Below are positions 2,498-25,551 of a stretch of 64,000 bases of DNA, piece by piece. This stretch comes from a virus. The DNA lies in the IMG/VR virus record IMGVR_UViG_3300021962_000044, positions 1 to 64,000 of that record; one strand, 5' to 3'. A program made the position numbers and the translations under genes. The notes beneath the pieces are model-generated. The model was not told where the DNA came from and made no database searches. It worked only from the letters and a program-made list of their open reading frames with translations. Numbering within the stretch: the first letter of the stretch is position 1; each line of letters starts with the position of its first letter.

Positions 2498-3941
2498 AAT
2501 AATCGTCAAAGACGAAGTGAATGTAAAGATAGAGGGACTTGAACTATCAGAGCGCAAAGCACTGATGAAAATGTTTGAGTACGAAATACCCGGAGCACGT
2601 TATTTACCCGCAGTAAGACTAGGTAGATGGAATGGTAAGGTAAGCTATTTCAGTTTAGCGGGTAGCACATACATTAACTTGTTACCTGAAATACTTCCTT
2701 ATCTAGACAATGCAGGATATGATATTGAGTTAGATGATTTAAGAGATTATACTACAACCTTTACTTTTGACAAAGTGTCCGAGGATACATTCAAAAATAA
2801 GAACTGGCCTAAAGGTCATCCCAAAGAAGGACAACCGGTAGAACTACGTGACTATCAAATTGAAATTGTAAACAACTTCTTAGAGAATCCACAATCATTA
2901 CAAGAAATTGCTACAGGTGCAGGCAAAACGTTAATGACTGCCGCACTAAGTTATAGTATTGAGAAGTATGGACGTAGTATTGTTATCGTCCCAAATAAAT
3001 CACTAGTAACCCAAACAGAAGCAGATTACATTAATCTTGGATTAGATGTTGGTGTATACTTTGGTGATCGCAAAGAATATAACAAAACACATACAATCTG
3101 TACTTGGCAAAGCCTTAACAATATGCTTAAGAAAACAAAGTCGGGTGAAGCTGAAGTTGAGATAGGTGACTTTATTGAAGGTGTGGTATGTGTAATGGTT
3201 GACGAAGTACATATGGCAAAAGCAGATGCATTGAAAACATTGCTTACAAGTGTATTTGCTAAAGTGCCCATTCGCTGGGGATTGACTGGAACTATTCCTA
3301 AAGCTAAGTTTGAAGCACAGAGTATATTTGTTAGTTTGGGTAATGTTATTGGTAAACTAAGTGCTAGTGAATTACAAGATCAGGGTGTTCTTGCACGTTG
3401 TCACGTTAACATTATGCAGTTACAAGATGGCAAAGAGTTTACCAACTATCAAAGCGAACTAAAACACTTGTTAGAAGATAGTGAACGATTGGATAAGATT
3501 GCTAGTTTAATTAGTGGTATCAATGATACAGGTAATACATTGATTCTTGTTGATAGAGTTAATGCAGGAAAAGAGATTGTTAACAGATTGCCTGGTAGCG
3601 TATTCGTTAGCGGTGCTACTAATATGACTGAAAGGAAAGAGGAATATGATGAAGTTGCCACTAGTACGAATAAAATTATTGTTGCGACTTATGGAGTTGC
3701 GGCTGTTGGCATTAATATACCTAGGATATTTAACCTTGTTTTGTTGGAGCCAGGAAAGAGTTTTGTTCGGGTTATCCAAAGTATTGGACGTGGAATTCGA
3801 AAAGCAGAAGATAAAGACCACGTACAAATCTACGACATAACTAGCAGTTGTAAGTTTGCTAAACGGCATTTGACCCAACGCAAGGCTTTTTACCGTGAAG
3901 CCAATTACCCCTTTGATGTAGAAAAGTTGACGTACAAATAA
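2484..3941 (+). CDS. uvsW: SF2 DNA helicase, UvsW-like
   Basis: LRDYQ Q-motif, ATGAGKT, DEVH, GLTGT, QSIGRGIR. Confidence 0.85.
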   Translation: MKQCKIIVKDEVNVKIEGLELSERKALMKMFEYEIPGARYLPAVRLGRWNGKVSYFSLAGSTYINLLPEILPYLDNAGYDIELDDLRDYTTTFTFDKVSEDTFKNKNWPKGHPKEGQPVELRDYQIEIVNNFLENPQSLQEIATGAGKTLMTAALSYSIEKYGRSIVIVPNKSLVTQTEADYINLGLDVGVYFGDRKEYNKTHTICTWQSLNNMLKKTKSGEAEVEIGDFIEGVVCVMVDEVHMAKADALKTLLTSVFAKVPIRWGLTGTIPKAKFEAQSIFVSLGNVIGKLSASELQDQGVLARCHVNIMQLQDGKEFTNYQSELKHLLEDSERLDKIASLISGINDTGNTLILVDRVNAGKEIVNRLPGSVFVSGATNMTERKEEYDEVATSTNKIIVATYGVAAVGINIPRIFNLVLLEPGKSFVRVIQSIGRGIRKAEDKDHVQIYDITSSCKFAKRHLTQRKAFYREANYPFDVEKLTYK

Positions 3942-4535
3942 TTATAAATATTCCCAGCCTGATCTACCGCGTTTTATTAACCCTCGGATAGCCTGACCAC
4001 TAATACCATATGATAATCCGGCTAGTTTTGTACTAGGAAAATGTTCTCCTGAGGGAGAAATACAAGGTCGATTGCGGTATTCTGCTAGTTTTTTCTTAGA
4101 ATTAGTTGTATGTGTTTTTCCTTTAAAAGGAGATTTTCTGCCCCTAGCACTATCAGCCATTTTTTGTTTGGTATCATCACTATGCTTTTTAATACCTTTA
4201 GTAAGCGCAGACATTGCAGCCGATGCTTCACGTTTCAATTGCTCATACAACCTTGATGATATTTTATATCTATTATGTAGTTTTGAATGTGCGGTCATCA
4301 TATCCACAGCCTTAATCATTTGAAATTTTGCTTTTCCCTCAACCATTTTAACTAATAATCTATGACAAATAAAATGCTCTCTGGCTGTTAATCTAATTAA
4401 ATTATCTTTTTTATTAGTACCGCCGAGACACTTTGGGATTATATGATGTTTTTCCGAGTATTCATCCAAAACTCTTGCTTTTGCTCTATTAACTATGTTA
4501 TTATACGTTATGGTATACTTATTATCTAAATACAT
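3942..4535 (-). CDS. HNH homing endonuclease with NUMOD3-like repeats
   Basis: EKHHIIPKCLGG..N..NL..LTAREHFICH; KHSDDTKQKMA and GKTHT repeats; ATG 4535 preceded by AAGGAG (track start 4607 is too long). Confidence 0.85.
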   Translation of the reverse strand: MYLDNKYTITYNNIVNRAKARVLDEYSEKHHIIPKCLGGTNKKDNLIRLTAREHFICHRLLVKMVEGKAKFQMIKAVDMMTAHSKLHNRYKISSRLYEQLKREASAAMSALTKGIKKHSDDTKQKMADSARGRKSPFKGKTHTTNSKKKLAEYRNRPCISPSGEHFPSTKLAGLSYGISGQAIRGLIKRGRSGWEYL

Positions 4536-4603
4536 TGCTGATTGCTCCTTTGTAGCGTTAGAGAGGGTGGGAACTGCAATTCCGCGACCCTCACACTTAT
4601 TTA
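4536..4603 (-). ncRNA. Late promoter plus conserved structured 5' leader of the HNH gene (candidate cis-regulatory RNA)
   Basis: TAAATA-5nt-GAGGGT cgcGG..CC c ACCCTC TCTAACGCT..AAGGAGC.ATCAGC; matches 24872-24936 with compensatory changes. Confidence 0.7.
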
Positions 4604-4618
4604 TCACGGAGAACTAAA

Positions 4619-5119
4619 ATTCGCATCCTAACACTAGACAATGAGTTCTATAACCTAGAAACACTTCCCGAAGAAATTGATGACCTGCGTTTTGCTATAT
4701 TGGACAATAGTAATCCCTCAAACGTAGATTATCATTACATTCCACTAATCTTTTTGGAATCATTTAACAGTCCTGCACTTGTATTAAAGATTGGTAACAG
4801 CACTATTAAGATGCCAGTGGATTGGCAAATACTAATTGGCGAACAAGAACATGGGGACTTAGAGACATTACCATTAACAAGTATCAATGATAGAGGCTTC
4901 AATGCATTTGAGTTTAATCCATTAAGTTCATTCAGTCCCTCATTCGTACCTATCGAGATTGTAGATATCTATCACGATGTAACATGGTATGCACCTCGCT
5001 TGAAAAACGGACAGTTCTTATGTGTGCCGATTGATGATGGACCTAAACCTCGCTGTGTATATTTTGTTAAAGAAATTAGTCGTAATTGTGAAATAGTAGA
5101 TTATAGTCAGGCATTCTAA
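4619..5119 (+). CDS. Hypothetical protein, probable ATT start
   Basis: Frame is open upstream of 4700 (IRILTLDNEFYNLETLPEEIDDLRFAILDNS); GGAG lies 7 nt before ATT at 4619; no in-frame ATG upstream of 4700. Confidence 0.65.
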   Translation: MRILTLDNEFYNLETLPEEIDDLRFAILDNSNPSNVDYHYIPLIFLESFNSPALVLKIGNSTIKMPVDWQILIGEQEHGDLETLPLTSINDRGFNAFEFNPLSSFSPSFVPIEIVDIYHDVTWYAPRLKNGQFLCVPIDDGPKPRCVYFVKEISRNCEIVDYSQAF

Positions 5120-5709
5120 TGGCAACGAAAAAGAGTACACCTACTGATGAAAAGTTTGAAGGGCAAGACTTTGACTTGTTTGATGCTCTTACAGCTATGG
5201 ATAAAAAAGACTATGGTTATTATGACAGATTAACAGAAGAACAACAAAAGAAGTTTGTTCCCTATATGATGACACATTGGATGAGTGCTATTAAAGGATC
5301 GGGTGACGTTCAGGGCTATTATTTACGTAGTGTTGACTATCACGCAAACAAACATCTATTCAATGAATATGTACAGAAACATCCTAAATTGCAATGGTAT
5401 ATGTTATGTGCTAGTAGTCCTGGATTAGGAAAACAGTTCCATCAATGGATTCCCCATTTAGGTAGCAAAGTTACATCATTAAAAGAACCTGCAAAAGCAA
5501 AAGATATCAAAGAATATTACACTAAGATTTATCCCAAAGTTGGTGCAGATGATATTGATGAGATTGCTAAGGCCTTTGTAGTAGAACATAAACGTAAATG
5601 TTATCTAGCAGAAACATTCCCTAACTTAAAACAATCGGATATAGAAGTTCTTAGTCAATTGGTGACTGAAGAAGAAATTAAGCAATATGAAAAAGACCGA
5701 GGAAACTAA
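5119..5709 (+). CDS. Probable clamp-loader small subunit (T4 gp62-like)
   Basis: FVPYMMTHWMS..N..KHPKLQW..KQFHQWI pattern resembles gp62; a gp44-like gene lies at 52256. Confidence 0.55.
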   Translation: MATKKSTPTDEKFEGQDFDLFDALTAMDKKDYGYYDRLTEEQQKKFVPYMMTHWMSAIKGSGDVQGYYLRSVDYHANKHLFNEYVQKHPKLQWYMLCASSPGLGKQFHQWIPHLGSKVTSLKEPAKAKDIKEYYTKIYPKVGADDIDEIAKAFVVEHKRKCYLAETFPNLKQSDIEVLSQLVTEEEIKQYEKDRGN

Positions 5710-6385
5710 ATCACTACATGGTTGTGAGTTCTGTAAAGCTACGTTCCAACGTGAAAGCACAGTACTTAAACATATATGTGAAACTAAACGTAGATGGTTA
5801 GAACGTGACCGTCAAGGTAATCGTGTGGGTTTTCAAGCTTGGCTACAGTTTTATAAGAAAAATACTGCAGGTACAAAAAATCGTACATATGAGGAATTCA
5901 TTAAGAATCCTTATTACCTTGCGTTCATTAAGTTTGGTCTATATTGTGTAGAGATTAAGTGTATTAATGTAAGTAGATTTAGTGATTGGTTATTAAAGAA
6001 TTCAATTCGTATTGATAACTGGCGACAAGACAGTAACTATACAAAGTTCTTATGTGAATATTTACGAACAGAAGATCCATTAGATGCGATACATCGTAGC
6101 ATTGAAACTACAATGGATAAAGCTGAAAATGAAAAAATTCAAAGCAGAGATTATTTACGCTATGGCAATGTAAATAATATATGTTATGAGATTGCCAGAG
6201 GACGAATTAGTCCATGGATGTTATATCAAAGTTCTAGTGGTGTAAGATTTTTAGATACATTACGTGATGACCAGCAGAAGATGATTATTGACTATATCAA
6301 TCCAGAGCAATGGGCCATTAAGTTTAAACGTGAACCAGAAAACGTGAAACAAGTTAAGGAATTATTAAATGCGGGCGGGTACTAG
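5687..6385 (+). CDS. Hypothetical protein with N-terminal zinc finger
   Basis: CEFC...F.....L.KH.C. Confidence 0.65.
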   Translation: MKKTEETKSLHGCEFCKATFQRESTVLKHICETKRRWLERDRQGNRVGFQAWLQFYKKNTAGTKNRTYEEFIKNPYYLAFIKFGLYCVEIKCINVSRFSDWLLKNSIRIDNWRQDSNYTKFLCEYLRTEDPLDAIHRSIETTMDKAENEKIQSRDYLRYGNVNNICYEIARGRISPWMLYQSSSGVRFLDTLRDDQQKMIIDYINPEQWAIKFKREPENVKQVKELLNAGGY

Positions 6386-6563
6386 AGTTCGTATACCATG
6401 GCAGAAAGGTGATATTATAGATTGGAATCAAACCTGTGCTTGGGCTATGGAACAGTTTGGATTACCCGGTGATAGATATGTTACACACTCAACTGAAAAT
6501 TATTTGGATTTCTATTTCAAGGATGAACGTGATGCTATTCTTTTTGAGTTGACCCGTGGCTGA
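6369..6563 (+). CDS. Small FxLxW-family protein 1
   Basis: W..EQFG..FYFKDERDAILFEL. Confidence 0.6.
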   Translation: MRAGTRVRIPWQKGDIIDWNQTCAWAMEQFGLPGDRYVTHSTENYLDFYFKDERDAILFELTRG

Positions 6564-6771
6564 CGTTATCCTATATATTACCGCCAAAAGAACTATGGAA
6601 ATAGGACATGAGTTACGAAACATGGGTTATATTCAGGGTGTTGATTTTGACTATGCTTACTACCAAGAGAAGTATGACAACTTTAGCCATGAACCTATTG
6701 TGAAACGACATGCAAGATTTACTTTTTACAATGATACTAATGCTAGTTATTTTGCGTTGAGGTGGGGATGA
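6556..6771 (+). CDS. Small FxLxW-family protein 2
   Basis: C-terminal FTFYNDTNASYFALRWG; GTG start overlaps the previous gene. Confidence 0.65.
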   Translation: MADVILYITAKRTMEIGHELRNMGYIQGVDFDYAYYQEKYDNFSHEPIVKRHARFTFYNDTNASYFALRWG

Positions 6772-7085
6772 ATATAACAGAAGAAATTATTAATCAAGTA
6801 GCCGATCAAATGGCTAAAGATATTGACGCAATGGTGTTAATGTCTGCATTAGGATGGCATTCTTTTGATTTTAATAAAGGTACCGTTTATGGTCAACCGT
6901 ATTTGACTGTACAACCATTGGACAGTATTAAATGGAAAGAAATGGAAGCATGGATGGTAGAAACATTTGGACCTACAGCACACGACGGTGTATGGACACC
7001 TGACATGAGATGGTATATGAATAATTCTAAGTTTTGGTTTCGTAACAAAAAAGATTTAGAATGGTTTCTACTAAGATGGCAATAA
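6768..7085 (+). CDS. Small FxLxW-family protein 3
   Basis: WMVETFG..FWFRNKKDLEWFLLRWQ; ATGA overlap. Confidence 0.7.
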   Translation: MNITEEIINQVADQMAKDIDAMVLMSALGWHSFDFNKGTVYGQPYLTVQPLDSIKWKEMEAWMVETFGPTAHDGVWTPDMRWYMNNSKFWFRNKKDLEWFLLRWQ

Positions 7086-7315
7086 TTGAACATTATGAAC
7101 GAGACCGTAGTTGGGATGAAACTAAACCTGGTTGGTATGAATGTAGTGTGAAAATAAAACGTATTGACAAATACTTAGAATTAATCGATTGGTTATATGC
7201 CAATATAGGAAAATGTGAAAGACATTGTAGATGGCGTACTACTTCCGATGATACAGTTAGTGTCAAGTTTAGATATGAAAAAGATTATATTATGTTTACG
7301 TTGAGGTGGAGTTGA
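7076..7315 (+). CDS. Small FxLxW-family protein 4
   Basis: WLYANIG..KFRYEKDYIMFTLRWS. Confidence 0.7.
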   Translation: MAIIEHYERDRSWDETKPGWYECSVKIKRIDKYLELIDWLYANIGKCERHCRWRTTSDDTVSVKFRYEKDYIMFTLRWS

Positions 7316-7581
7316 TGGCAACCATACCTCAAATACAAGATTACGATGACGATGATCCAAATATAGAACAGCGTAAAAAGCGTTGGGATTATTGGACAGC
7401 ATTGAAACTTGTACGTAAAGAATATATGGAACAAAACAAAGAGTTTGACGCATATGATTTTGAAGATTACCTTATAGGACAATATGGTATAAGAATGAAC
7501 ATTATTAATGGCAACATAACTGATGGTTATGAGATTGTTGACGAAAAGAAGTACCTAATATTTTTATTAAAATTCCAATGA
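7315..7581 (+). CDS. Small FxLxW-family protein 5
   Basis: IVDEKKYLIFLLKFQ; TGATG coupling. Confidence 0.65.
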   Translation: MATIPQIQDYDDDDPNIEQRKKRWDYWTALKLVRKEYMEQNKEFDAYDFEDYLIGQYGIRMNIINGNITDGYEIVDEKKYLIFLLKFQ

Positions 7582-7925
7582 ACCAATTATTTCCCATAAC
7601 CTCTATACAAAACAACAAATTTATGTTATCATGGCCTAACTGGGATAACATTAAACAGTTTGATACAAAAAAATTATTAATAGAATTATTGTTTAAAGAT
7701 ATGAAAGTTAAAGAAGCTGGAGTTGCATTAGATATGTATGACGGTGAGATAGATATTATGTGGATAGACCATCAATGGTGGATGAAAGATATCAATGGTG
7801 AATATGCAAAGTACCTAGAAGATATGTATACAATTAAAGGTGTAGCTTTTAATAGTGAAATAGAAGCATTGAAGCTACGAGATTACTTAGAGAAAAAATA
7901 TATTTGGAAAACATTGCAGGCGTAA
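7578..7925 (+). CDS. Hypothetical protein
   Basis: 115-aa ORF with ATGA overlap. Confidence 0.65.
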   Translation: MNQLFPITSIQNNKFMLSWPNWDNIKQFDTKKLLIELLFKDMKVKEAGVALDMYDGEIDIMWIDHQWWMKDINGEYAKYLEDMYTIKGVAFNSEIEALKLRDYLEKKYIWKTLQA

Positions 7926-7926
7926 T

Positions 7927-8481
7927 ATGGCACAAGACATAATGATAGATATGGAAACACTTGACACAAGTCCTGATTGTGTTATCTTAACCATTGGTGC
8001 AGTAAGATTTGATCCTAAAGGTAGTGGAGTTGTTGAAAGACTAGAATTACGACCTACTATTGAAGAACAAACAGAAATTTATAATAGGAGTATAAATGAA
8101 GATACATTACGCTGGTGGGGTGAGCAAAGTCCGGCAGCTCTTGAAGAGGCTATGGGAGAAAATGGCAGAATTCCATTTAAAGAATGTATGGAAATACTTT
8201 ATAAGTTTTGTTGGAATCGCCGTGCTGTGTGGAGTAATGGTGCATCATTTGATGTGGTTGTGGCAGAGTCGGCCTGGAGAAACCTTGAAATGCGAACCCC
8301 CTGGCCTTTCTACACCGTTAGAGATACACGTACCTTGTATGAGATAACTGGAGTAAGTCTTAAAGACGGCGGTCACGTAACCAGTCACAAAGCAGTTGAA
8401 GATGCCGAAAGACAAGCAATTGTTGTACAAAAAGCGTATACTAAATTAATTAAAGCAGAACTGGTACCTCCCCCAAAATGA
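7927..8481 (+). CDS. DEDDh 3'-5' exonuclease
   Basis: IDMETL, SNGASFD, RDTRT, HKAVEDA. Confidence 0.85.
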   Translation: MAQDIMIDMETLDTSPDCVILTIGAVRFDPKGSGVVERLELRPTIEEQTEIYNRSINEDTLRWWGEQSPAALEEAMGENGRIPFKECMEILYKFCWNRRAVWSNGASFDVVVAESAWRNLEMRTPWPFYTVRDTRTLYEITGVSLKDGGHVTSHKAVEDAERQAIVVQKAYTKLIKAELVPPPK

Positions 8482-9041
8482 GAATAGACTCAGATATTGA
8501 CATTGACTTTGGTGATAGAGATAAGTTATTACAACTTATAAAATATACGCCGGCAGCAATGCGTAATGTAAAACCAATACGTAAACATGCTACCGGTGTA
8601 TATGTTACTGACATTCCATATGATCCAGTCAACAGTATGTCAAGTATTGATTATACAGTTGCAGATAAACGTGGATATTTTAAATTAGACTTATTGAATG
8701 TTCATGTGTATAGTCAGGTTAGTGATGAACTGCATTTAATAGAATTAATGCGAGAACCTAACTGGGATAAACTTAAAGATCCTGTATTTGTAGAGAAATT
8801 AATTCACTTAAATAATCAATTTTATAATTTACAAAAAATGCCGGAACCAGTAGATAGTATTCCTAGATTAGCTATGTTTCTAGCTGTAATTCGTCCTGGT
8901 AAGAAGCATTTAATAGGTGAACGATGGATTAATGTTGCTAAAACTGTATGGGATAAAGGTACAGACGGGTATGTGTTTAAAAAGTCGCATAGTTTAGCCT
9001 ATTCACAGCTAGTTGTAGTTCATATGAACCTATTAGGGTAA
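8478..9041 (+). CDS. dnaE: DNA polymerase III alpha-like catalytic fragment (C-part of split mini-DnaE)
   Basis: DIDIDF, KHATGVYV, FKLDLL, AVIRPG and GYVFKKSHSLAY match DnaE motifs. Confidence 0.8.
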   Translation: MRIDSDIDIDFGDRDKLLQLIKYTPAAMRNVKPIRKHATGVYVTDIPYDPVNSMSSIDYTVADKRGYFKLDLLNVHVYSQVSDELHLIELMREPNWDKLKDPVFVEKLIHLNNQFYNLQKMPEPVDSIPRLAMFLAVIRPGKKHLIGERWINVAKTVWDKGTDGYVFKKSHSLAYSQLVVVHMNLLG

Positions 9042-9413
9042 GCGTTTAACTAATGTAATACTACGGCGTTTGCTTCTACGTTTATTTAATTCAATTATAC
9101 TACAGACAGGACCATGTAGTATAGTAAGACTTTTGTTATTAAATGTCCTAATATAGGGCTTAAATATACTCCATTCATCTTTTAAAAATAGATTGATGGG
9201 TATTAATCTATTACTTTCCCACCACCAAACATCACCTAATTCTAAGAATTTCTCTTTAATAGCGTTATCTATTATAGAACCGTAATCATATATAGTGGTG
9301 ACTATATCGTCCCTATTTTGAACAATTCCTACATAATCTTGATTTGCGTAGGAACAAATAGTTATGAAGGGGTGATTTTCGCCTAATCGTTTAAAAAACT
9401 CGTTTTGTATCAT
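9033..9413 (-). CDS. Hypothetical protein
   Basis: Probable ATG 9413 (MIQNEFF) downstream of a TAAATA element. Confidence 0.65.
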   Translation of the reverse strand: MIQNEFFKRLGENHPFITICSYANQDYVGIVQNRDDIVTTIYDYGSIIDNAIKEKFLELGDVWWWESNRLIPINLFLKDEWSIFKPYIRTFNNKSLTILHGPVCSIIELNKRRSKRRSITLVKRLP

Positions 9414-9498
9414 TAAAATTATAGTCTCGGATATATTTATCGGGCAAACCAAACCATTAATAAATTAATATATAAATACACAATAGGAGATTACATTT

Positions 9499-10266
9499 GT
9501 GTACTCAACCCAAGTTTTCATTTATACACAACGCCAAATCGTTGTATTATTATCAGGATATTCGCCAAGGAGTTATATGCCTCAGTATGCCAAACCACTG
9601 ACCCTACACAAGGGTGTAGATAACATGATTCAGTTCCAGTTTCTAAATCAACAACAAAAACCTGTTGATATTACTGGTAAATCAATAACATGTAGAATTA
9701 TCAACTATCAGGGTAATGAATTATTATTGCAAAAAGCACTAACCTTGCAATTACCTGCAACAGGAATTGCCGCATTAATGTTAGGTCCTGCTGATATAGA
9801 AAGTTTTGATGCTCAAAAATGTTATTACTCATTAGAGATTCCGGTAGGAGAATTTGATTATCCTGTATTCGTTGACCAAAATGCAGGTGCTAGAGGTGAT
9901 TTAAATATTGTTAATAGTGTACTTCCTAGCTTTGTACCTTCAATGCCAGTTACAATTCCTACAGGACAATCGTTCCCTAACAACAATAGTAATGGTAATA
10001 GCGATAGCAACTTGACTTATTATACCAGTGTAATTACAACCAATGATTCTAGTGTATTAACTTTGCAGGCAGAATATAGTGATTATTATGGTAATATTGC
10101 CATTGAAGGTTCTACTATTGTTGATGGAGATTGGTATCCAATATTCGCTGACACATACACAGAAGTAACAGATACAAAAGGGTATGTTGTAGAAGGCTTC
10201 CACCCATATATCAGAATGCAATTTGAAAGCAATGCTGGTTTTGTAACCAACATATTGGCAAGATAA
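9499..10266 (+). CDS. Putative virion structural protein (BppU-N-like beta-sandwich)
   Basis: FQFLNQQQKPVDITG motif; AGGAG RBS with GTG start. Confidence 0.5.
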   Translation: MYSTQVFIYTQRQIVVLLSGYSPRSYMPQYAKPLTLHKGVDNMIQFQFLNQQQKPVDITGKSITCRIINYQGNELLLQKALTLQLPATGIAALMLGPADIESFDAQKCYYSLEIPVGEFDYPVFVDQNAGARGDLNIVNSVLPSFVPSMPVTIPTGQSFPNNNSNGNSDSNLTYYTSVITTNDSSVLTLQAEYSDYYGNIAIEGSTIVDGDWYPIFADTYTEVTDTKGYVVEGFHPYIRMQFESNAGFVTNILAR

Positions 10267-10315
10267 ACAACCATAGTTGTTGATATCTCTGTTAGAGTAT
10301 GTTATACTACTACTA

Positions 10316-12741: not shown

Positions 12742-12748
12742 AATTAAT

Positions 12749-14636: not shown

Positions 14637-14655
14637 ACCTCTATTAAATAGTAAT

Positions 14656-15586: not shown

Positions 15587-15635
15587 CAATAAAACAAAAA
15601 AGATAAATACTTTATATTAGTCTTGGAATATAACT

Positions 15636-16681: not shown

Positions 16682-16682
16682 G

Positions 16683-17009: not shown

Positions 17010-17053
17010 CCTAAATTCTTGCATTTAAATATAAAATATAATATAATAGTTAA

Positions 17054-17740
17054 ATGTACATTCCAAACAAATATAATTATGTCCCAATGAGCCGTGTAGA
17101 AATAGACGGCAAACGCAGATACGCTACACCAGATGGTGAAAAACTCCCTTCAGTTACTACTATTTTAGACGCTACTAAAAGCGAAGAATCTAAGAAAGCA
17201 TTAATGGAATGGCGTAAACGTGTAGGTGCACAAAAAGCACAAGAAATCACAACAGAAGCCGCAGGCCGTGGAACACGAATGCACAAATGGTTAGAAAACT
17301 ATATTAAAACAGGAGCAACGGGTGAGCCCGGAAGCAATCCATATAGCTTACAAAGCCATACTATGGCACAAACTATCATTAGTGAAGGTCTTATTAAATG
17401 CAATGAATATTGGGGTACAGAAGTTCCTCTCTATTATCCAAAAATTTATGCAGGGACAACAGACCTAGTAGGTATACATGATGGTGATGAAGCTATTATG
17501 GATCACAAACAAACAAATAAACCTAAAAAACGTGAGTGGATTGAAGATTATTTTGTTCAGTTAGCCGCTTATGCTAATGCTCACAATGAAGTGCATGGTA
17601 CAAAGATACGTAAAGGTGTTATTTTTATGTGTTCCGCTGATAATCTTTATCAGGAATTCATATTAGAAGGATCTGATTTTGACAAGTATTCAGATATTTG
17701 GTTCAATCGTGTAGAAAAATATTACATGAGCTTTCTGTAA
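17054..17740 (+). CDS. PD-(D/E)XK exonuclease
   Basis: LPSVTTIL, GTRMH, AGTTDL, DHKQ, QLAAY; leaderless after TTGCAT-17-TATAAT. Confidence 0.85.
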   Translation: MYIPNKYNYVPMSRVEIDGKRRYATPDGEKLPSVTTILDATKSEESKKALMEWRKRVGAQKAQEITTEAAGRGTRMHKWLENYIKTGATGEPGSNPYSLQSHTMAQTIISEGLIKCNEYWGTEVPLYYPKIYAGTTDLVGIHDGDEAIMDHKQTNKPKKREWIEDYFVQLAAYANAHNEVHGTKIRKGVIFMCSADNLYQEFILEGSDFDKYSDIWFNRVEKYYMSFL

Positions 17741-17783
17741 GAAATAATGATAAATAAGTGTAAATCTTCAAAGAATTACACTT

Positions 17784-19262
17784 ATGGCCATTATACAGAT
17801 ATCGAAAATTCAACAACGTTCAGGTAACCTTGTAGACCTGCCACAATTATCAGAAGCACAATTAGGTTGGGCAAATGATGCTAAACGCCTTTTTATAGGT
17901 GGTACCGGCAATGCTAATACTTATAATGAAAACATTGAGGTATTAACATCATATTCTGATATTACCTTTAGCCAAATAAATGGTAGTGAAGGTAACCTAG
18001 ATATTAATTCTGCCGCATCAGGACAAGTTTTGGGTTATAACGGAACTGATTGGGTTAACAAAGGCGGCACAGCAGGCGGACTAATTAATTTAGGCACAGT
18101 AGCCAATGTTAAATTAGGTGGAGGTGTTAATGGATATGTGTTACAAACAGATGGTTTGGGTAATTTAAGTTGGACTACTCAAACAGGTGGTGGCGGCAAT
18201 GCTAACGCTGCCGGCTCTAATACACAAATTCAATTTAATAATGCTGGTTTGTTTGGTGGAAATTCAGGATTTACTTTTGAACAAGTTACCGGCGCAATGG
18301 CAGTTCCAGGAACACTTGCAGTAAGCAATACAATTACCGGAACAAGATTAATATCTAATATCGCTACAGGAACAGCCCCGTTAACGGTAACAAGTACCAC
18401 ACAAGTTGCTAACTTAAATGTAGCTACATCAGGTGTTGCAGGAACAGTAACAACAGCGGCACAACCTAATATCACCTCAGTAGGAACACTAACAAGCTTA
18501 ACAGTAACTGGTAATATTATCGGTGGCAATGTATATGCTAACACAGGCACAATTGGTGCAACTAATTTAACTGGTACACTAACAACAGCCGCACAGCCAA
18601 ACATAACAAGTGTAGGCACATTAACTAGTTTAACTGTTACAGGAAATATTACGAGTGGCAATGTATATGCTAATAGTGGTACTGTTGGCGCTAGTTTATT
18701 AACTGGTACATTAACCACTGCGGCACAACCAAATATTACAAGTGTTAGCACTTCATTTACCAATCTTACATTTGCAAATGCACAAACAATCAGTGGTAAT
18801 AATATGACATTGACTACTGGCGCAAACACAAATGTTGGTACTATTACTGGTAATTGGTCATTATCTACCGGATCACAGCTACGTGCCACATATGCTGACT
18901 TAGCAGAATATTATGTAGCAGATCAACATTATGAATCTGGTACTGTTTTAGCATTTGGCGGAGACAAAGAAGTTACACTAGCAGAAGATGGAACATCACG
19001 TGTTGCAGGTATTGTTTCAACTAACCCAGCATATGTATTGAATACTGCATGTGAAGGTGAACATACCGTAGTATTAGCATTACAAGGACGTGTTCCTTGC
19101 AAGGTGCGTGGAATAATTCGTAAAGGTGATATGATGGTATCTGGCGGAAATGGCTTTGCTAGAGCAAGTTTATCACCTCATATGGGAACAGTTATTGGCA
19201 AAGCATTAGAAAACTTTGATGGAATCGAGGGCGTAATTGAAGTCGCTGTCGGTAGATTATAA
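17784..19262 (+). CDS. Tail fibre/receptor-binding protein (Mtd-N-like start, C-terminal intramolecular chaperone-like domain)
   Basis: IQQRSG..LPQL..LGWA; three TTAAQPNITSV repeats; YADLAEYY..GRVPCKV..GKALE. Confidence 0.75.
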   Translation: MAIIQISKIQQRSGNLVDLPQLSEAQLGWANDAKRLFIGGTGNANTYNENIEVLTSYSDITFSQINGSEGNLDINSAASGQVLGYNGTDWVNKGGTAGGLINLGTVANVKLGGGVNGYVLQTDGLGNLSWTTQTGGGGNANAAGSNTQIQFNNAGLFGGNSGFTFEQVTGAMAVPGTLAVSNTITGTRLISNIATGTAPLTVTSTTQVANLNVATSGVAGTVTTAAQPNITSVGTLTSLTVTGNIIGGNVYANTGTIGATNLTGTLTTAAQPNITSVGTLTSLTVTGNITSGNVYANSGTVGASLLTGTLTTAAQPNITSVSTSFTNLTFANAQTISGNNMTLTTGANTNVGTITGNWSLSTGSQLRATYADLAEYYVADQHYESGTVLAFGGDKEVTLAEDGTSRVAGIVSTNPAYVLNTACEGEHTVVLALQGRVPCKVRGIIRKGDMMVSGGNGFARASLSPHMGTVIGKALENFDGIEGVIEVAVGRL

Positions 19263-19275
19263 ATAGGAAAATAAA

Positions 19276-19563
19276 ATGGCATCAGCAATTTATACAGCAA
19301 ACAGTTCAAGTCAATTAACAACAGTAGCAACTACCGATAAAGTTCGTATTGCTACTACAACATCAGCTATAGCTATAGCAGTAGGTAATTCTAGCATTAC
19401 GGCTAACTTAACGACAGGAGAAATTATCCCTGCTAACACAGTAGACAATAACTTCTTGGTTGGCCAAGGTAATTATATTGCTTACATCAATGTAGCAGGT
19501 ACAGCAGGAGCATTCAGTATAACTCAACTAGGTGCAAATCACGCCAATACAGGCACTGAATAA
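19276..19563 (+). CDS. Small virion protein
   Basis: Ala/Thr-rich; TAAATA and AGGA upstream. Confidence 0.6.
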   Translation: MASAIYTANSSSQLTTVATTDKVRIATTTSAIAIAVGNSSITANLTTGEIIPANTVDNNFLVGQGNYIAYINVAGTAGAFSITQLGANHANTGTE

Positions 19564-19599
19564 TATATATTAGATAAATATTTTATAAGGAAAAATAAA

Positions 19600-20490
19600 A
19601 TGGGAAATGCTCTAAAGATTAGAAAATATCAGGATGGTCAAGTTATTGATGACGGCTTTCCTAACGATGGCTCAACAAACAACGGATATAGTGACTCTCA
19701 ACCCGGTATTGTAGGCGGTATTAATGAAGATAGCGATATGATTCGTTGTGATGCGGCTGTACTTGTAAAAGGTTTAGGAACTATTACGGCTGATACAGGT
19801 AGTTCCACAGTTACAGGAACTGGTACACATTTTAGTACTGATGGATTTACTGGCTCTAGTCAACTTTGGGTTAGTGATGGTGCCGGTGGTTACACATCAT
19901 TGGGAATCTATAGTAGCACAACTGATGACGAAGAATTAGAATTAGGTGACCCTTCAGGTTCAAATGTAACTGATAGTGCTTGGTACTATACCGCAACTAG
20001 CAACAGTTCTATCGTTCGTCAAAAAGGTTCTAGAAAATTCTTAGTTGCGGCCAATAACAATGTCATCCAAGATGAATCTATTGCGACCGGTCAGGCATAT
20101 ATGATTGCTACTGTGGGTGATACTGATTGGCAAGCACTTGGTGCTGATGCAACAGCCGCCCAATATGATATTTTTACAGCATTGAAAGATGGAACAGGTT
20201 TAACAACTAATGGTGAAGTTTATGCAGTTGCTACATGTTTATTAGTAGACTTAAACAGTCCAACAGAACCTAACACAATTAGTGTTCAAATTAATGATGA
20301 TGGCAATACATATTATGCAAGCCGTTTGAAGAACAAGTTCAGCACTAACTTTGCTACACCATATGCAAATTGCAATCCAGGTGTAACATTCTCTGCTACA
20401 TTCTTTAATGATAATGGTAACACATTACCTAACCCATCAGCTTCTGGTGACTTAGTTTATACATTAGTTGGTACAGAAAACTGGTGTTAA
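19600..20490 (+). CDS. Virion structural protein, paralogue of 21318-22709
   Basis: MGNALKI, IVRQKG.RKFLV, YMIATVGDTDWQALGA. Confidence 0.65.
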   Translation: MGNALKIRKYQDGQVIDDGFPNDGSTNNGYSDSQPGIVGGINEDSDMIRCDAAVLVKGLGTITADTGSSTVTGTGTHFSTDGFTGSSQLWVSDGAGGYTSLGIYSSTTDDEELELGDPSGSNVTDSAWYYTATSNSSIVRQKGSRKFLVAANNNVIQDESIATGQAYMIATVGDTDWQALGADATAAQYDIFTALKDGTGLTTNGEVYAVATCLLVDLNSPTEPNTISVQINDDGNTYYASRLKNKFSTNFATPYANCNPGVTFSATFFNDNGNTLPNPSASGDLVYTLVGTENWC

Positions 20491-20508
20491 TACTATAACA
20501 CTCAAAAG

Positions 20509-20531
20509 AAAAAGCGACTTAGGTCGCTTTT
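20509..20531. terminator. Terminator, possibly bidirectional
   Basis: AAAAGCGAC-TTAG-GTCGCTTTT. Confidence 0.8.
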
Positions 20532-20546
20532 CCATTAAATAAACGC

Positions 20547-21227
20547 ATGATTACATATAGAAACCCAAACACATTAGGACATCTTAAAGAAGACTGGATT
20601 GAAACTTATCGCACGTTCAGTAACAATAGTTATTACGATTCAAACTATATTCATTATAGCGACTTAGAAGTTATTAACGATGATAGGGTACAACCTAGAA
20701 ACTGTGTACCCATTCATCAACATTGTGATATGGAAATCTTAGGATACATTATAGATGGTCCTTGCTATCACAATGACAACTTGCATAACTACGGAGAAGT
20801 TCCTAGTGGATGTGTACAGCGCATGAGTTCAGGAACGGGTATTTGGCATACTGAAGGTAACTTATCAGATAACCCAATTCGTTATTTACAGATTTGGCTA
20901 CGACCAAACAAACATAATTTTCCACCACAATACGATGTAATGCAATTTACTAGAAAAGATAAATTGAATAAGTTTTGTCCCATCGCCAGTAATACTGGTC
21001 CTATACATATTAATAGCGATGCAAAAGTATTTGCAGGCATATTCACTCAAGATTTTAACGTCAACTTGAATAATAGTCGTAGATATTATGTATATGTTGT
21101 TAGCGGGACAGTAAAAATCAATGGATATGATTGTGTCGAAACTTCAGGATTGAGTTTTGAGAGTGAAGATTTGTTAACTATTGAGCAGGCCAAGGATGCA
21201 GAGGTGTTGCTTTTTGACCTTCGTTGA
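20547..21227 (+). CDS. Pirin-family bicupin protein (YhhW-like)
   Basis: TFS..YYD, VINDD, HQHCDMEI, QRMSSGTGIWHTE, LQIW, LLFDL. Confidence 0.9.
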   Translation: MITYRNPNTLGHLKEDWIETYRTFSNNSYYDSNYIHYSDLEVINDDRVQPRNCVPIHQHCDMEILGYIIDGPCYHNDNLHNYGEVPSGCVQRMSSGTGIWHTEGNLSDNPIRYLQIWLRPNKHNFPPQYDVMQFTRKDKLNKFCPIASNTGPIHINSDAKVFAGIFTQDFNVNLNNSRRYYVYVVSGTVKINGYDCVETSGLSFESEDLLTIEQAKDAEVLLFDLR

Positions 21228-21242
21228 TAAATATATGATACG

Positions 21243-21295
21243 CTCTTAATTCTGAGAGTTTATGCAGTACCCACTGCGTAGCGGCTAGAACCCGC
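21243..21295 (+). promoter_or_regulatory. Three-hairpin 5' leader after a late promoter
   Basis: CTCTTA/TGAGAG, TATGCAGT/ACTGCGTA and GCGG-CTAGAAC-CCGC stems. Confidence 0.5.
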
Positions 21296-21317
21296 AATTA
21301 TAATTAAGGAAAATCAA

Positions 21318-22709
21318 ATGGGACGTCCTCTAAAAATCGCAAAGGCTCAAGCAGTCTTAACAATTACTGATACAGCCGCAACAGGTAGTATCGTTACAAT
21401 ATCAGGTGGAAATTTAACTACATCACCAACAGTTGGTGTAGCTAAAGGTATGCCATTCCAAGTAGCTACAACAGTTGGTGGCCTAACAGCAGGTGTTACA
21501 TATTTTATAAATTCAATACTATCAAATACTACATTTGATGTATCTGCTACAGACCTAAGTGTTCAGCCACAAGTTATGGCAACACTGTCTGACACAAGTA
21601 GTCAAACAGTTTTAATGTCGGTTGGTGTAGTTGATGCTTATTTTAATAATCCAGTAGGTGGTGCAGGTTTCCCTGCAACTAACGCTAATACATATGGTGT
21701 AGTTGGTGGCAATACAGCAATTGTTGGTAATCAAGTATTAACACGTGTTGCTATTGGTATCAATGGTACAGGTACATTGTACACACCTACAGCAGTTAAC
21801 ACAAGCACAGTGGTAGTAGGTGTAGGTACTGATTTAGCTAACTTAACAACTGGTGCCGCACTTCAAGTAGGTGTTGCTAACATTAATGGTAGTACTGATT
21901 ATGTTAATCTAGGTTTTGCAAGTGCAACAAAAGGTGATGTAACAGTAGCTGTTGCAAACACTGTAGTATCAGGAAATATAATTGGAACTTCTGGTAATGC
22001 CCAAACTCTTATAGTAGATATGCCAATTACATTTAGTGCTAATTTGGGTACTCTAGTAACAGGTACAACATATTTTGTTAAGGCTATTGCTAATGCTGCC
22101 GCATTTACAGTATCTACTAGCCAAAGTGGCCCTGAAGTACAAATGGCTGCCGCTACTGGTACACCAGATGCTGTAATGAACCGTGTTGTATTAACTGCTA
22201 ATGCAAATGTTGTAGCAAGTGGTGCGGCATATGTTTATGCAAATGATGAAGCTGGTTTTATCGTTCGTCAAAAAGGCAAAACAAAATATTTAGTTACAGG
22301 TGGTACAACTGGCTTGACAGCACAATGCTATACAGCTAACGTAGCAAACACAGCATTAACACCAAACACAATGAACATCTTGTCTACTGACGCCGCATCT
22401 GCTACAGCATTTGTATCAAGTATTAATGACTATAACTCTGAAGTGTTCCCAACACAAGTTGCAGCCGGTTCATTATCAGCAGGTACTGTTTACACAATTT
22501 ACAGTGCAGGTACAACAAACTGGACAGCAGTTGGTGCTATGGCTAATATGACAGGTATTACATTCACTGCTACTGGCGCAGGATCTGGTACAGGTACTGC
22601 TGTTGCATATACTGTTAACCCTGACGTTATTGCTACATTCAATACTGCGGCGGCTGCTAATGCGGCTAACGGTCAACCTAACCCGATCGTAGTTATTGCT
22701 AGTGCTTAA
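21318..22709 (+). CDS. Virion structural protein
   Basis: Ala/Thr/Gly-rich; MGRPLKI, IVRQKGKTKYLV; two G.TYF modules. Confidence 0.7.
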   Translation: MGRPLKIAKAQAVLTITDTAATGSIVTISGGNLTTSPTVGVAKGMPFQVATTVGGLTAGVTYFINSILSNTTFDVSATDLSVQPQVMATLSDTSSQTVLMSVGVVDAYFNNPVGGAGFPATNANTYGVVGGNTAIVGNQVLTRVAIGINGTGTLYTPTAVNTSTVVVGVGTDLANLTTGAALQVGVANINGSTDYVNLGFASATKGDVTVAVANTVVSGNIIGTSGNAQTLIVDMPITFSANLGTLVTGTTYFVKAIANAAAFTVSTSQSGPEVQMAAATGTPDAVMNRVVLTANANVVASGAAYVYANDEAGFIVRQKGKTKYLVTGGTTGLTAQCYTANVANTALTPNTMNILSTDAASATAFVSSINDYNSEVFPTQVAAGSLSAGTVYTIYSAGTTNWTAVGAMANMTGITFTATGAGSGTGTAVAYTVNPDVIATFNTAAAANAANGQPNPIVVIASA

Positions 22710-23023
22710 TGATGACAAGTACTATTAAAATGCCGACTCAGACAACTAAAACTGATATCGCTGTACTTCAAGTTCAAGTTAAAAACATTGAACAGGACGT
22801 CAGCGAAATCAAAACTAGTCTTAAAGAGATGCATGAATGTCTTGACCGTAACGCAGAAGAAACTAGAGAACTTCTAACTAATATGCGTAACGAAGATATG
22901 ATTGCTCATAAAGAATTAGGAGCAAAAGTTTCTGCTTTAGAAAAGTGGAGATGGATGATGATGGGTGCAGGCATAGTTTTAGGATCATTGGGATTTGATA
23001 TGATAGCAAAAATGCTAAAATAA
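22709..23023 (+). CDS. Coiled-coil protein with C-terminal TM helix (holin/XhlA-like)
   Basis: Heptad coiled coil followed by WRWMMMGAGIVLGSLG. Confidence 0.55.
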   Translation: MMTSTIKMPTQTTKTDIAVLQVQVKNIEQDVSEIKTSLKEMHECLDRNAEETRELLTNMRNEDMIAHKELGAKVSALEKWRWMMMGAGIVLGSLGFDMIAKMLK

Positions 23024-23049
23024 AAAAAGAGACTTAGGTCTCTTTTTTT
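23022..23049. terminator. Bidirectional terminator between convergent genes
   Basis: A7-GAGAC-TTAG-GTCTC-T7. Confidence 0.9.
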
Positions 23050-23450
23050 GTAAGTGCTTTTAATTTCTTTTGAACAACATCAAAATTTACAGTACTAAAC
23101 AGTCCAGGATGTAATGGTTTAGGATATTGATTATCTCCCACCCATGCATACCCACAATGTTCTTCATTTAGTACTGGAGTAAATTCTTCATCTATCTTGC
23201 AAAAAAATGTATGATATGTAAATGTATTATTTACAAATTTTTGTATAGGTACTAATTTTGGATTTTCTGGAAAGTACCCAATTTCTTCATTACATTCTCT
23301 ATCAATGCCCACAAGTAATGTTTCACCATTTTCTATTTTCCCACCCGGAATGCCCCAGTTACCCGGATTTTTATTATCCGTTCTAAGTAGATATAAGAAT
23401 CGTTGTGTGTTTTTAGCGTAAAAGAAAACGCCTGCTGAGATATTATTCAT
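23034..23450 (-). CDS. Nudix hydrolase
   Basis: Nudix box GGKIENGETLLVGIDRECNEEIG; LNEEH..YAW. Confidence 0.9.
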   Translation of the reverse strand: MNNISAGVFFYAKNTQRFLYLLRTDNKNPGNWGIPGGKIENGETLLVGIDRECNEEIGYFPENPKLVPIQKFVNNTFTYHTFFCKIDEEFTPVLNEEHCGYAWVGDNQYPKPLHPGLFSTVNFDVVQKKLKALTKKET

Positions 23451-23478
23451 ATGCTAAGACATTATAGCATAAAGTAAA

Positions 23479-24855
23479 TTAGATTACAATACTATAATCA
23501 CCCTGGTCGTAAAAACCTTCCCACGATTTCATCCAGGAACCTTCTGAAGCAACATATCGATATTGTACATTAGTTGTTAAATTGGTTACGTATTGTACTT
23601 CAGTATCTACCGCACTGTTAAACGCAACAAACCATTCACCTGTTGTATCATCATATTCAATAATATCGTTTGCATATGCTACTACATTTCCCCATGCAAT
23701 AGTTGTATTATCCGGACTACCAATATCTTCTACTATAAGATATCTAATTCCGTTAACAGGAGTAGGTAACCCTGCATTTGGTCCAGTGACTAATGGGTTG
23801 ACCACGCTGTCTACAGGATCCAATGTATTTTGAGGCAGGGTATCCGGATCAATATTATAGATTAATAATCTATCATCATTTGGATCTGGAACAATAGTAC
23901 CTACAATTTCAGTATTCATAAAAGGATTTTGTAACCATATCTGACTAATACCTGGACGTAATGTTCCGTATACATTAAGCAAACTTGACCAATACAAACT
24001 AGTATTGGGATTAGGTGGCAAATCTAAATTTTCATTATCGGGATAGAAATCTTGATTAGCAGGTAATAATTGTAAACTATTACCTATTAATAATAACTTG
24101 TATCCGTATGGTGTAATCTTTTGTCTTGTACCTAATAACAAATCATCATTCTGTATATCATCTAATGCTTTACCAGAGAATATACTTGCAATAATCTTTT
24201 CAATAACACCCATCTTTTTAAGTTTGGCTGCATTGCTAATCCATATAGGCATGTAGAATTTCCAACTTAATACGTCAATGGGATTACCTGTACCTTGCGG
24301 AATAGTTCTACTACTAAATGTTAAACCATCTTGATATACAACACTTAAACTAGTCCAATCAATAAAGTTATCAGTAGATTGAATTTCTAATGAAGGATTG
24401 AATAGTGTACCTAGTTGTTCAATCAATTCTAATTTTTGATTATAATTAGTTGTCCATAAATCTACACTCATACGTAATGTATAGGGTACTGGCATTAATC
24501 TTTCAACAGTAAATGCCTGTCCTTGTACAGTTTCATAACTTTGTGTTTCTGTGTTATAGCTACGTTGACGAACTTGAATTTTATCAATGAAAGTGGGGTC
24601 CTGAGTTCTTTTTTGATCATATTCTAGACCAGTAATATAATATGTAATAAGTGGTGCGCTAGGTAAATTACTTGCACTGTTATTAGCAATGATAGTACTT
24701 GCTTGACGACTTGAGTCACCATACATAACTGGTACACGAACAAGTATATCATTACCTGCAGGATCTTTACCTTTAGTAACATACCAATTACTAAAGATTT
24801 TTCCAAACTGAATTAGAAATCTGCGGACCTGATTATCGTAGAAGAAGGCTGCCAA
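23479..24855 (-). CDS. Tail terminator/sheath stabiliser (T4 gp15-like)
   Basis: FFYDNQVRRFLIQFGKIFSN..VPVMYG..MPVPY..EQL..LFNP; TTG start at 24855 after AAGGA. Confidence 0.7.
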   Translation of the reverse strand: MAAFFYDNQVRRFLIQFGKIFSNWYVTKGKDPAGNDILVRVPVMYGDSSRQASTIIANNSASNLPSAPLITYYITGLEYDQKRTQDPTFIDKIQVRQRSYNTETQSYETVQGQAFTVERLMPVPYTLRMSVDLWTTNYNQKLELIEQLGTLFNPSLEIQSTDNFIDWTSLSVVYQDGLTFSSRTIPQGTGNPIDVLSWKFYMPIWISNAAKLKKMGVIEKIIASIFSGKALDDIQNDDLLLGTRQKITPYGYKLLLIGNSLQLLPANQDFYPDNENLDLPPNPNTSLYWSSLLNVYGTLRPGISQIWLQNPFMNTEIVGTIVPDPNDDRLLIYNIDPDTLPQNTLDPVDSVVNPLVTGPNAGLPTPVNGIRYLIVEDIGSPDNTTIAWGNVVAYANDIIEYDDTTGEWFVAFNSAVDTEVQYVTNLTTNVQYRYVASEGSWMKSWEGFYDQGDYSIVI

Positions 24856-24871
24856 AATAGTATTCCTTGTA

Positions 24872-24936
24872 TAAATAATAGTGTAACTCGCGGCTTCTGA
24901 CACCCAGTTACTCTAACGCTATTAAGGAGCATCAGC
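24872..24936 (+). ncRNA. Late promoter plus conserved structured 5' leader of the GIY-YIG gene (candidate cis-regulatory RNA)
   Basis: TAAATA-5nt-GTAACT cgcGG..CC c AGTTAC TCTAACGCT..AAGGAGCATCAGC; covaries with 4536-4603. Confidence 0.7.
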
Positions 24937-25551
24937 ATGACTATTTATCTTTATAAAAAGACCCATCGTATTACTGGATTAAAGTATCTAGGAAAAACTT
25001 CTTCAAAAGACCCGCATTTATACACAGGTTCGGGAAAATATTGGAAATCGCATCTAAACAAGCACGGATTTGATTACGATACTGAAATCTTAAGAGAATG
25101 TTATACTAACGATGAAGTTAAGCAATGGGGTGAATATTACAGTAACTTATGGAATATAGTTGAAAGTAATGAATGGGCTAATCTAAAAATAGAATCAGGT
25201 GACGGGGGCGATCCCGGTCCAATTGGTCGTAGTAAAATTGCAAAAGCTCAAACAGGAAGAAAACATACTACAGAAGAAAATGAGCACAAAAGCAAAAGAC
25301 AAACTGGTATAAAACGATCACCGGATTATCTTGCAAAAAAGATTGGACTAACATACAAAAAACCAAAAGCAAGAACTAGGCCAAACAAAAACAAAGGCAG
25401 ACAACTAACACAAGAATGGATTGATAATAGTGCAAAAAGTCGCACCGGCATGAAATACAAAATAATAGAATGTCCGCATTGCGGGAAACAGGGCGGGTCT
25501 TGCACTATGCCAAGATGGCATTTTAATAATTGCAAATCTCTAAAATCTTAA
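24937..25551 (+). CDS. GIY-YIG (Seg-like) homing endonuclease
   Basis: IYLYKKTH..GLKYLGKT, YTGSG, WANL; NUMOD3-like GRKHT; C-terminal CPHC..WHFNNC. Confidence 0.85.
   Translation: MTIYLYKKTHRITGLKYLGKTSSKDPHLYTGSGKYWKSHLNKHGFDYDTEILRECYTNDEVKQWGEYYSNLWNIVESNEWANLKIESGDGGDPGPIGRSKIAKAQTGRKHTTEENEHKSKRQTGIKRSPDYLAKKIGLTYKKPKARTRPNKNKGRQLTQEWIDNSAKSRTGMKYKIIECPHCGKQGGSCTMPRWHFNNCKSLKS

Follow-up and report, generated by a model that had tools for sequence, protein, structure and literature searches.

Homing-endonuclease cassettes in a jumbo phage contig appear to move together with a rewired start of the neighbouring gene

A 64,000-nt stretch of virus DNA (the window; bases 1-64000 of the 111,075-bp IMG/VR contig IMGVR_UViG_3300021962_000044, about 32% complete according to CheckV) carries two cassettes, each composed of a leader and a predicted homing-endonuclease gene, inserted antisense between co-directional genes. 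Comparison of related loci indicates that these cassettes are mobile free-standing homing-endonuclease units that co-convert a rewired start of the downstream gene, in which a Shine-Dalgarno sequence (SD) and a near-cognate codon stand in place of the native ATG. We estimate at about 0.6 the probability of the explanation as a whole, that is, homing units, a co-converted rewired start and non-ATG codons favoured for immunity to the nuclease. Both cassettes had been described in an earlier reading of the sequence (the original prediction), whose coordinates for the cassettes, their stops, ribosome-binding sites (RBSs) and starts were all correct on direct reading.

The contig belongs to a jumbo myovirus by protein similarity, with PA5oct, Atu_ph07, Phosso and the Rak2/121Q group as distant relatives at the 32-48% amino acid (aa) level. 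Searches of cultured-phage DNA returned distant matches to the helicase gene of site 1 only, none for site 2 and no close relative at the DNA level. Relatives were therefore taken from IMG/VR, where hundreds of freshwater relatives show protein identities of 80-100%. At each of sites 1, 2 and 3 (the last beyond the window on the same contig), 80 related loci were compared. Labels beginning with L denote loci or contigs, L003 being the contig of the window beyond 64 kb, and those beginning with X denote sequencing runs.

Organization of the two cassettes

At site 1 the cassette separates the gene of a UvsW-like DNA helicase (2484-3941, plus strand; Pfam ResIII/DEAD/Helicase_C/UvsW_N, phrog_16) from a conserved 166-aa gene of unknown function (4619-5119, plus strand; phrog_11279). 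The open reading frame (ORF) of the 197-aa HNH homing endonuclease lies on the minus strand (3942-4535) and runs from an ATG at 4535 to a stop at 3944-3942 (TTA on the plus strand), which abuts the helicase stop TAA (3939-3941) with 0 nt between them. The protein was identified by phrog_655 (E 4e-47), NUMOD3 (1e-9) and an HH..N..H motif; the Pfam HNH match is weak (18.7 bits) and below cut-off. A ratio of non-synonymous to synonymous substitution rates (dN/dS) of ~0.2 against L167 indicates purifying selection. The window HNH ends in ..SGWEYL, without the ~60 C-terminal residues present in L167 and L168, and the helicase stop marks the exact end of the short and the longer forms alike. The abutment seems to have been re-created in the window HNH gene through a 3′ deletion.

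The leader of this cassette (4536-4605, minus strand) begins with GATAAATA (4605-4598), followed by a hairpin (4592-4563), the box CTCTAACGCTA (4563-4553) and the SD AAGGAG (4550-4545). The promoter-like GATAAATA is 2 nt from an outward-facing GGAG, the SD of the rewired start of the 166-aa gene (4608-4621, plus strand), in which GGAG (4608-4611) is followed by 7 nt and by ATT (4619-4621). This start is found in occupied alleles only; codons 1-3 of the window read ATT CGC ATC, as against ATG CGW ATA/ATT in empty alleles.

At site 2 the downstream host gene encodes a gp15-like tail sheath stabiliser (23479-24855, minus strand; Pfam T4-gp15_tss, phrog_11196) with a TTG start at 24855, and the upstream one a virion structural protein in the gp14 position (25548-27266, minus strand; phrog_11591; called gp14 by gene order only). 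Between them lies the ORF of a 204-aa GIY-YIG-like homing endonuclease (24937-25551, plus strand; phrog_314) with a C-terminal Cys/His zinc-finger-like motif. A single TTAA (25548-25551) holds both its stop (25549-51) and that of the minus-strand gp14-position gene (25548-50). The leader (24870-24936, plus strand) comprises TATAAATA (24870-24877), a hairpin (24883-24911), the box CTCTAACGCTA (24911-24921) and the SD AAGGAG (24924-24929). Here TATAAATA is 1 nt from the outward AAGGA (24868-24864), which is separated by 8 nt from TTG (24855-24853) in the rewired start (24853-24868, minus strand).

The GIY-like protein has no Pfam match, and a sequence search of the PDB gave no match for either nuclease. 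Its conserved 90-residue N-domain (IYLY..YLGKT..) was modelled by AlphaFold with a predicted local distance difference test (pLDDT) score >90, and the I-TevI catalytic domain accounts for the top three PDB fold matches of the model (prob 1.0, TMt 0.68, E 0.012). On the basis of this model we assign the second nuclease as GIY-YIG-like with moderate confidence. The ORF is under purifying selection (dN/dS 0.10 against L208). A second insertion site beside gp15 was observed in L152 (3911-4270, plus strand), a TTG-type empty site-2 allele with a GIY-like gene (48% identical) placed in sense at the other end of gp15.

Empty and occupied alleles

The site-1 cassette is absent from 78 of the 80 related loci, and both occupied loci are identical to the window. 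In the empty alleles a spacer of 11-20 nt, as a rule with GTGATATAAT in it (a TGnTATAAT-like box, 5-6 nt before the start codon), separates the helicase stop from an ATG start (78/78); GGAG is found in 0/78. At site 2 the cassette is absent from 79/80 loci, the stop-start distance being 0-10 nt. Here 74 empty alleles start with ATG without an SD and five with TTG after AAGGA. The idea that the window's start codon and RBS differ from those of the empty allele thus stood at site 1, where neither ATT nor GGAG occurs in any of the 78, but not fully at site 2, where five empty alleles share AAGGA and TTG.

Further occupied lineages (L167, L168, L185 and L208-212) were found by searching with the nucleases. 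At site 1 the start region reads GGAG-N7-ATT CGC ATC in L167 (HNH 67% identical), AAGGAG-N7-CTG CGT ATC in L168 (62%) and GGAG-N7-ATT CAA ATC in L185 (44%), whose flank gene is very diverged. At site 2, L208-212 (85%) have AAGGGA-N7-TTG. In L160 the GIY gene is 71% identical, the stops overlap in the same TTAA, and the gp15 start is ATT or TTG four codons upstream. All told, an SD together with a non-ATG start (ATT, CTG or TTG) was present in 7/7 diverged occupied lineages, compared with non-ATG starts in 5/157 empty alleles. The stop-stop abutment is retained in L167, L185, L170 and L208 despite differing nuclease C-terminal lengths. In L170, whose site-1 HNH is 43% identical, a TGnTACTAT-N6-ATG module survives beside the cassette, and the start is ATG. 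A gap of 378 nt in L028, considered as a possible insert, was rejected as a tblastn truncation.

Across the 498 nt of the site-1 gene, the window bases that none of the 78 empty alleles shares (private bases) are confined to positions 3, 6 and 9, adjoining the cassette. No private bases were found in the 3′ end of the helicase gene, the 3′ end of the gp14-position gene or the 5′ end of gp15. Codon 3 is ATC in all four site-1 occupied lineages and in no empty allele. The private bases at positions 3, 6 and 9 are consistent with a destroyed target site but do not prove it.

ATT and TTG as genuine start codons

Judging by sequence comparison, ATT 4619 is the real start of the 166-aa gene, because no ATG, GTG or TTG is present from the in-frame stop (4559-61) to 4700, position 2 of the phrog_11279 profile aligns to residue 2 of the ATT-started protein, 78 relatives have ATG exactly at the position of the ATT, and ~10 synonymous changes as against 1 non-synonymous change separate occupied lineages over the first 27 codons. 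Moreover, occupied L168 has an in-frame stop five codons upstream with no canonical start after it. At site 2, the gp15 homologues begin at the position of the window's TTG (24855); an in-frame GTG further upstream (24903) is a conceivable but less likely start. An annotation artefact, in which the host genes would really start canonically at TTG 4700 and GTG 24903, is very improbable. These codons are the first canonical starts in the list of open reading frames, but a start at 4700 would drop 27 conserved residues, L168 and L191 offer no canonical codon after the in-frame stop that closely precedes the start, and the homologues all begin at the ATT or TTG position.

Evidence for transfer between phages

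Contig L009, from another sample, has an identical HNH. It shows zero differences from the window over 790 bp (3885-4674), comprising the cassette with 57 nt of the helicase gene on one side and 56 nt of the downstream gene on the other, in flanks that are 12-15% diverged. At site 2, the window and L207 are identical over 1542 bp (24352-25893; the cassette between 504 nt of gp15 and 343 nt of the gp14-position gene), and the flanks are 11-14.5% diverged. The cassette, SD, start codon and 56-504 nt of each flank lie inside each identical block. Occupied and empty alleles are intermingled in a tree of the site-1 flank gene computed without its first 12 nt; the tree requires five label changes, no fewer than two of them forced. 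Metagenome runs X1 and X3 each contain both forms, at similar depth. There the occupied form is an exactly matching contig, the Logan contigs ending at 4685, and in the empty contig 3942-4628 is replaced by 30 letters (the empty spacer and ATG CGA ATA T). Identical blocks and scattered alleles are the footprint that would be expected of homing with short co-conversion tracts. The proposal that each cassette is a defined mobile unit was thus borne out by its presence or absence among relatives, by the identical blocks in diverged flanks and by the co-occurrence of both alleles in the same samples.

Like the seg/mob-type genes of T4, the elements encode a nuclease domain, are intergenic and variably present among relatives, and bear the marks of transfer, in either direction, with co-conversion of the flanks. 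Other classes of mobile element were considered and rejected. Neither terminal inverted repeats nor target duplications were detected at the cassettes beyond short matches at chance level, a 12-nt direct repeat with 11/12 matches (24850 and 25581) being what chance predicts, and the sole ORF is the nuclease, so that an insertion sequence or transposon does not apply. A group I intron or intein does not apply either, as both flanking ORFs are complete, the insert replaces the spacer only and there is no Rfam intron match.

Scans of both sites for consensus promoters and terminators gave counts at the level of shuffled sequence; they found no terminator between the convergent genes and no host-gene promoter inside the cassettes. 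The original prediction also envisaged dampening by antisense read-through. The RNA run X18 has no cover over 3973-4577, and the RNA runs cover small shares of the sequence, as contigs, and are uninformative on transcription, strand and antisense dampening.

A shared leader and a third cassette

One leader type (late-promoter-like box, hairpin, box, SD) is common to cassettes 1, 2 and 3 and to dozens of nuclease genes in IMG/VR, and has no family match in Rfam. The hairpin is situated upstream of the SD and is preceded by the late-type box. Translational control of the I-TevI/mobE type, in which a hairpin hides the RBS, was considered and rejected, since the SD is unpaired in both the minimum free energy and the centroid structure and the late-type box lies outside the hairpin.

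The third cassette is located at 71.4-72.1 kb of the contig, where the shared leader at 72.0 kb precedes an HNH_3 gene antisense between two plus-strand ORFs. A conserved 16-aa mini-ORF ends in TAA at 71413-15, in overlap with the TAG (71412-14) that ends the nuclease gene. The antisense placement between co-directional genes, with abutting or overlapping stops, was thus confirmed at both window sites and is repeated at the third (3/3 in the contig). As a rule for the family the antisense placement failed, many of the cassettes surveyed among relatives (see below) being co-directional with their neighbours. The divergent neighbour at site 3 retains its own late-type box, AAGGA and ATG, and ATG is present in 80/80 relatives.

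The mini-ORF (MKDYDFYWNLKGYPRG; contig 71365-71415, plus strand, outside the window) precedes a 146-aa gene. Empty relatives at site 3 have a TAATG in which the mini-ORF stop and the ATG of the 146-aa gene overlap. The mini-ORF of the occupied allele has one codon more, and there the overlap is between its stop and that of the third nuclease. A hairpin near 71.45 kb was tried as an intergenic terminator and rejected, as it is inside the coding region of the third nuclease. In another group of IMG/VR loci, probably podovirus-like (L176-L179, L199, L206, L194 and L202), the leader follows a co-directional gene with its stop inside a ATAAATAA box; in these loci the promoter box thus doubles as the end of the upstream ORF.

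Survey of cassette junctions

A survey covered 54-75 non-redundant cassettes, with neighbour starts called by eye. Stops abut or overlap at 15 of ~22 convergent cassette junctions, mostly in TTAA. At divergent junctions of independent sites, non-ATG starts were found in 5/8 cases when the junction was tight (SD touching the promoter box) versus 1/22 when it was loose (Fisher p = 0.002); the loose junctions, which have a promoter-bearing spacer in between, show ATG at ~21/22 sites. The five tight non-ATG sites are the two of the window, a dNMP (deoxynucleoside monophosphate) kinase gene, a terminase gene and one unknown gene. An in-frame TAA immediately precedes both the ATC start of the dNMP kinase gene (L191) and the codons ATA, ATA and GTG, among which the terminase gene starts.

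Elsewhere in the contig, TATAAT-N6-ATG is found at 6-7 gene starts (e.g. 1469, 17054, 50482, 56212) and [GC]ATAAATA-N4-8-ATG at eight (e.g. 27266(-), 30491, 32321(-), 54431, 63993). With promoter boxes 4-8 nt before many ATGs, promoter-proximal and probably leaderless starts are common, which suggests that leaderless or near-leaderless mRNAs are widespread in this phage group. Some 42 other contig genes combine an SD-like motif with ATG.

A model for the rewired start

In the model that we favour, the unit consists of the late-promoter-like box, the conserved 5′ hairpin leader, a strong SD and a nuclease ORF running to the edge of the element. Such units occupy, in antisense, stop-to-start gaps of 0-20 nt in conserved operons and would spread between related phages through repair, of double-strand breaks or by homologous recombination, with short co-conversion tracts. 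The sequences carry the signature of recombination, from which we infer a nuclease cut. Insertion would abolish the native initiation, namely a promoter-proximal and probably leaderless start at site 1 and stop-start coupling at site 2. Both native designs depend on ATG. In the occupied allele the downstream gene would instead be driven by a strong SD, back-to-back with the cassette promoter, and a near-cognate start. Since the SD, the start and the first codons are inside the co-converted block, they travel with the cassette at a given site.

Selection seems to act against ATG in occupied alleles, because three to four diverged lineages per site carry differing non-ATG codons and none carries ATG. 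As to the reason, we tentatively rank self-immunity of the nuclease, with compensation by the SD, first, before the balancing of expression and then hitch-hiking, although we give it somewhat less than even odds. The nuclease would recognise the start region of the empty allele, and the change from ATG CGT ATA to ATT CGC ATC would make the carrier a poor substrate, the SD paying for the weak start codon. It is possible, if doubtful, that the start codon serves as a 'silent' immunity site, at which ATT, CTG and TTG would still initiate with Met while the cassette-linked SD restores expression.

Several observations weigh against this model. The five empty site-2 alleles with AAGGA and TTG resemble occupied L208 in the 5′ end of gp15, and the SD and TTG at site 2 may predate the insertion. 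The PA5oct homologue of the site-1 gene has AAGGTG and TTG without a nuclease, and that of 121Q has AAGGAG and ATG. At other sites, the tight junctions L228, L172 and L175 keep ATG. Bases within ~10 nt of an insert can stay linked without selection. The window HNH, being C-terminally short, may be inactive. Finally, the identical blocks come from metagenome assemblies, in which chimeric joins are possible.

Some of these observations favour an account by expression balancing only. Initiation led by an SD after insertion would select a weak start that matches a low native output, and nuclease specificity would be irrelevant. Alleles that lack a cassette can also combine an SD with a weak start (PA5oct, and five empty alleles of site 2, the other 74 having ATG and no SD), and ATG is kept wherever native signals are kept, as in L170 and at site 3 (80/80). 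We nevertheless regard this account as unlikely, although it is the strongest competitor: an SD-like motif coexists with ATG in the ~42 other contig genes and in 121Q on the same gene, a weaker SD would serve equally but was adopted by no occupied allele at site 1 or 2, and the private silent changes at codons 2-3 are left unexplained. A founder effect or hitch-hiking, in which the cassette landed in, or accidentally made, an allele with SD and non-ATG start and, for want of recombination within a few bases of the insert, dragged its neutral neighbours along, seems less likely again. Co-conversion tracts always include the junction, TTG and AAGGA empty alleles exist, and one of them, L163, resembles occupied L208 in the spacer and the 5′ end of gp15. 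Empty alleles of the L163 type look like sisters of L208 and could be either scars of cassette loss or pre-adapted recipients. On the other hand, ATT with GGAG occurs in 0/78 site-1 empty alleles, the same pattern recurs at unrelated sites, and lineages with nucleases 44-85% identical differ in codon (ATT/CTG; TTG/ATT) and never have ATG, which is one base away.

The original prediction had the outward RBS as part of the cassette. This was not upheld: the cassettes resemble one another only as far as the (G/T)ATAAATA box, and the RBS is junction-specific. An intrinsic, portable cassette end that delivers the RBS, and perhaps the start codon, to every new site is accordingly improbable, even more so than hitch-hiking, notwithstanding the occurrence of SD-N7-(ATT/ATC) right behind the promoter box, with similar A-rich spacers, at both site 1 and the L191 dNMP-kinase site. 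The SDs differ (GGAG-N7, AAGGA-N8, GGGG-N6), no terminal repeats or target duplications were found, and the third cassette and ~22 other sites have a promoter or RBS belonging to the neighbour.

Relation to known systems

Free-standing homing endonucleases are known, and their settling beside essential genes without harm is known from a few T4-family cases. For the free-standing endonucleases of T4, promoter displacement, co-conversion and remote cutting have been described (PMC2988022). The T4 seg/mob genes ('intronless homing', PMC2988022) likewise are GIY-YIG or HNH genes between conserved genes, possess late or middle promoters of their own, move through break repair accompanied by flank co-conversion and, on insertion, can displace intergenic promoters. 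The cassettes of the window differ from them in being antisense with their own promoter and an ORF ending on the neighbour's stop, in sharing one leader across nuclease families and in the rewiring of the neighbour's start to an SD and a near-cognate codon; a further unusual trait is that their hairpin does not hide the RBS. In orientation the closest parallel is segD, which lies between genes 23 and 24 and, alone among the homing endonuclease genes of T4, is antisense between co-directional late genes (PMC2988022). However, segD is without a promoter of its own and is flanked by terminators, whereas the window cassettes have a late-type box and no terminator on either side.

Insertion of mobE into nrdA of Aeromonas phage Aeh1 (PMC3045599) similarly forces new expression or assembly signals on the flanking coding sequences, but mobE splits a gene and lies in sense, whereas the window cassettes are intergenic and only initiation signals change. 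PeSL cassettes of T4-type phages (PMC2839356, PMC4122927) are also short conserved promoter/stem-loop modules at the borders of mobile cassettes. They combine an early promoter with a terminator-like stem-loop; in the window leader the box is of late type, the hairpin is 5′ and accompanied by an SD, and the module goes with nuclease genes.

The window HNH shares its HNH and NUMOD composition with intron-encoded enzymes of the Bacillus phages SPO1 and SP82, but is encoded by a free-standing gene. In those phages, I-HmuI and I-HmuII are HNH enzymes with NUMOD-type modules that recognise mainly the downstream flank; carrier immunity depends on flank polymorphisms, and flanking markers are excluded. 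The immunity changes proposed here would, as a lead only, include the start codon. Marker exclusion in HMU phages is discussed in PMC2988022. Our literature searches found no report of cassette-linked rewiring of a neighbour's start.

The natural population data presented here give the exact moving unit, very short co-conversion tracts and an 'ORF to the edge' design. In addition, they show that the start of the neighbour has been rewired repeatedly, an ATG that is promoter-proximal or coupled giving way to an SD and near-cognate codon. They offer a testable link between target-site immunity and the choice of start codon and explain some odd start annotations in phages, and the paired empty and occupied junctions are ready substrates for new nuclease specificities. 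If the start codon does serve as a silent immunity site, an essential neighbour would depend on a junction that travels with a selfish element. Should this hold generally, a near-cognate start next to a nuclease gene would flag a homing target in an uncultured phage.

Other features

In PA5oct, an 83-aa ORF of unknown function (L367; PA5oct 141983-142234) lies between the helicase gene and the site-1 homologue, and might be a remnant of an earlier insertion. In the window, the Rfam 'freshwater-2' RNA motif (RF02980) was detected at 21243-21320 on the plus strand with 62 bits, above the gathering score, directly upstream of a 463-aa gene starting at 21318.

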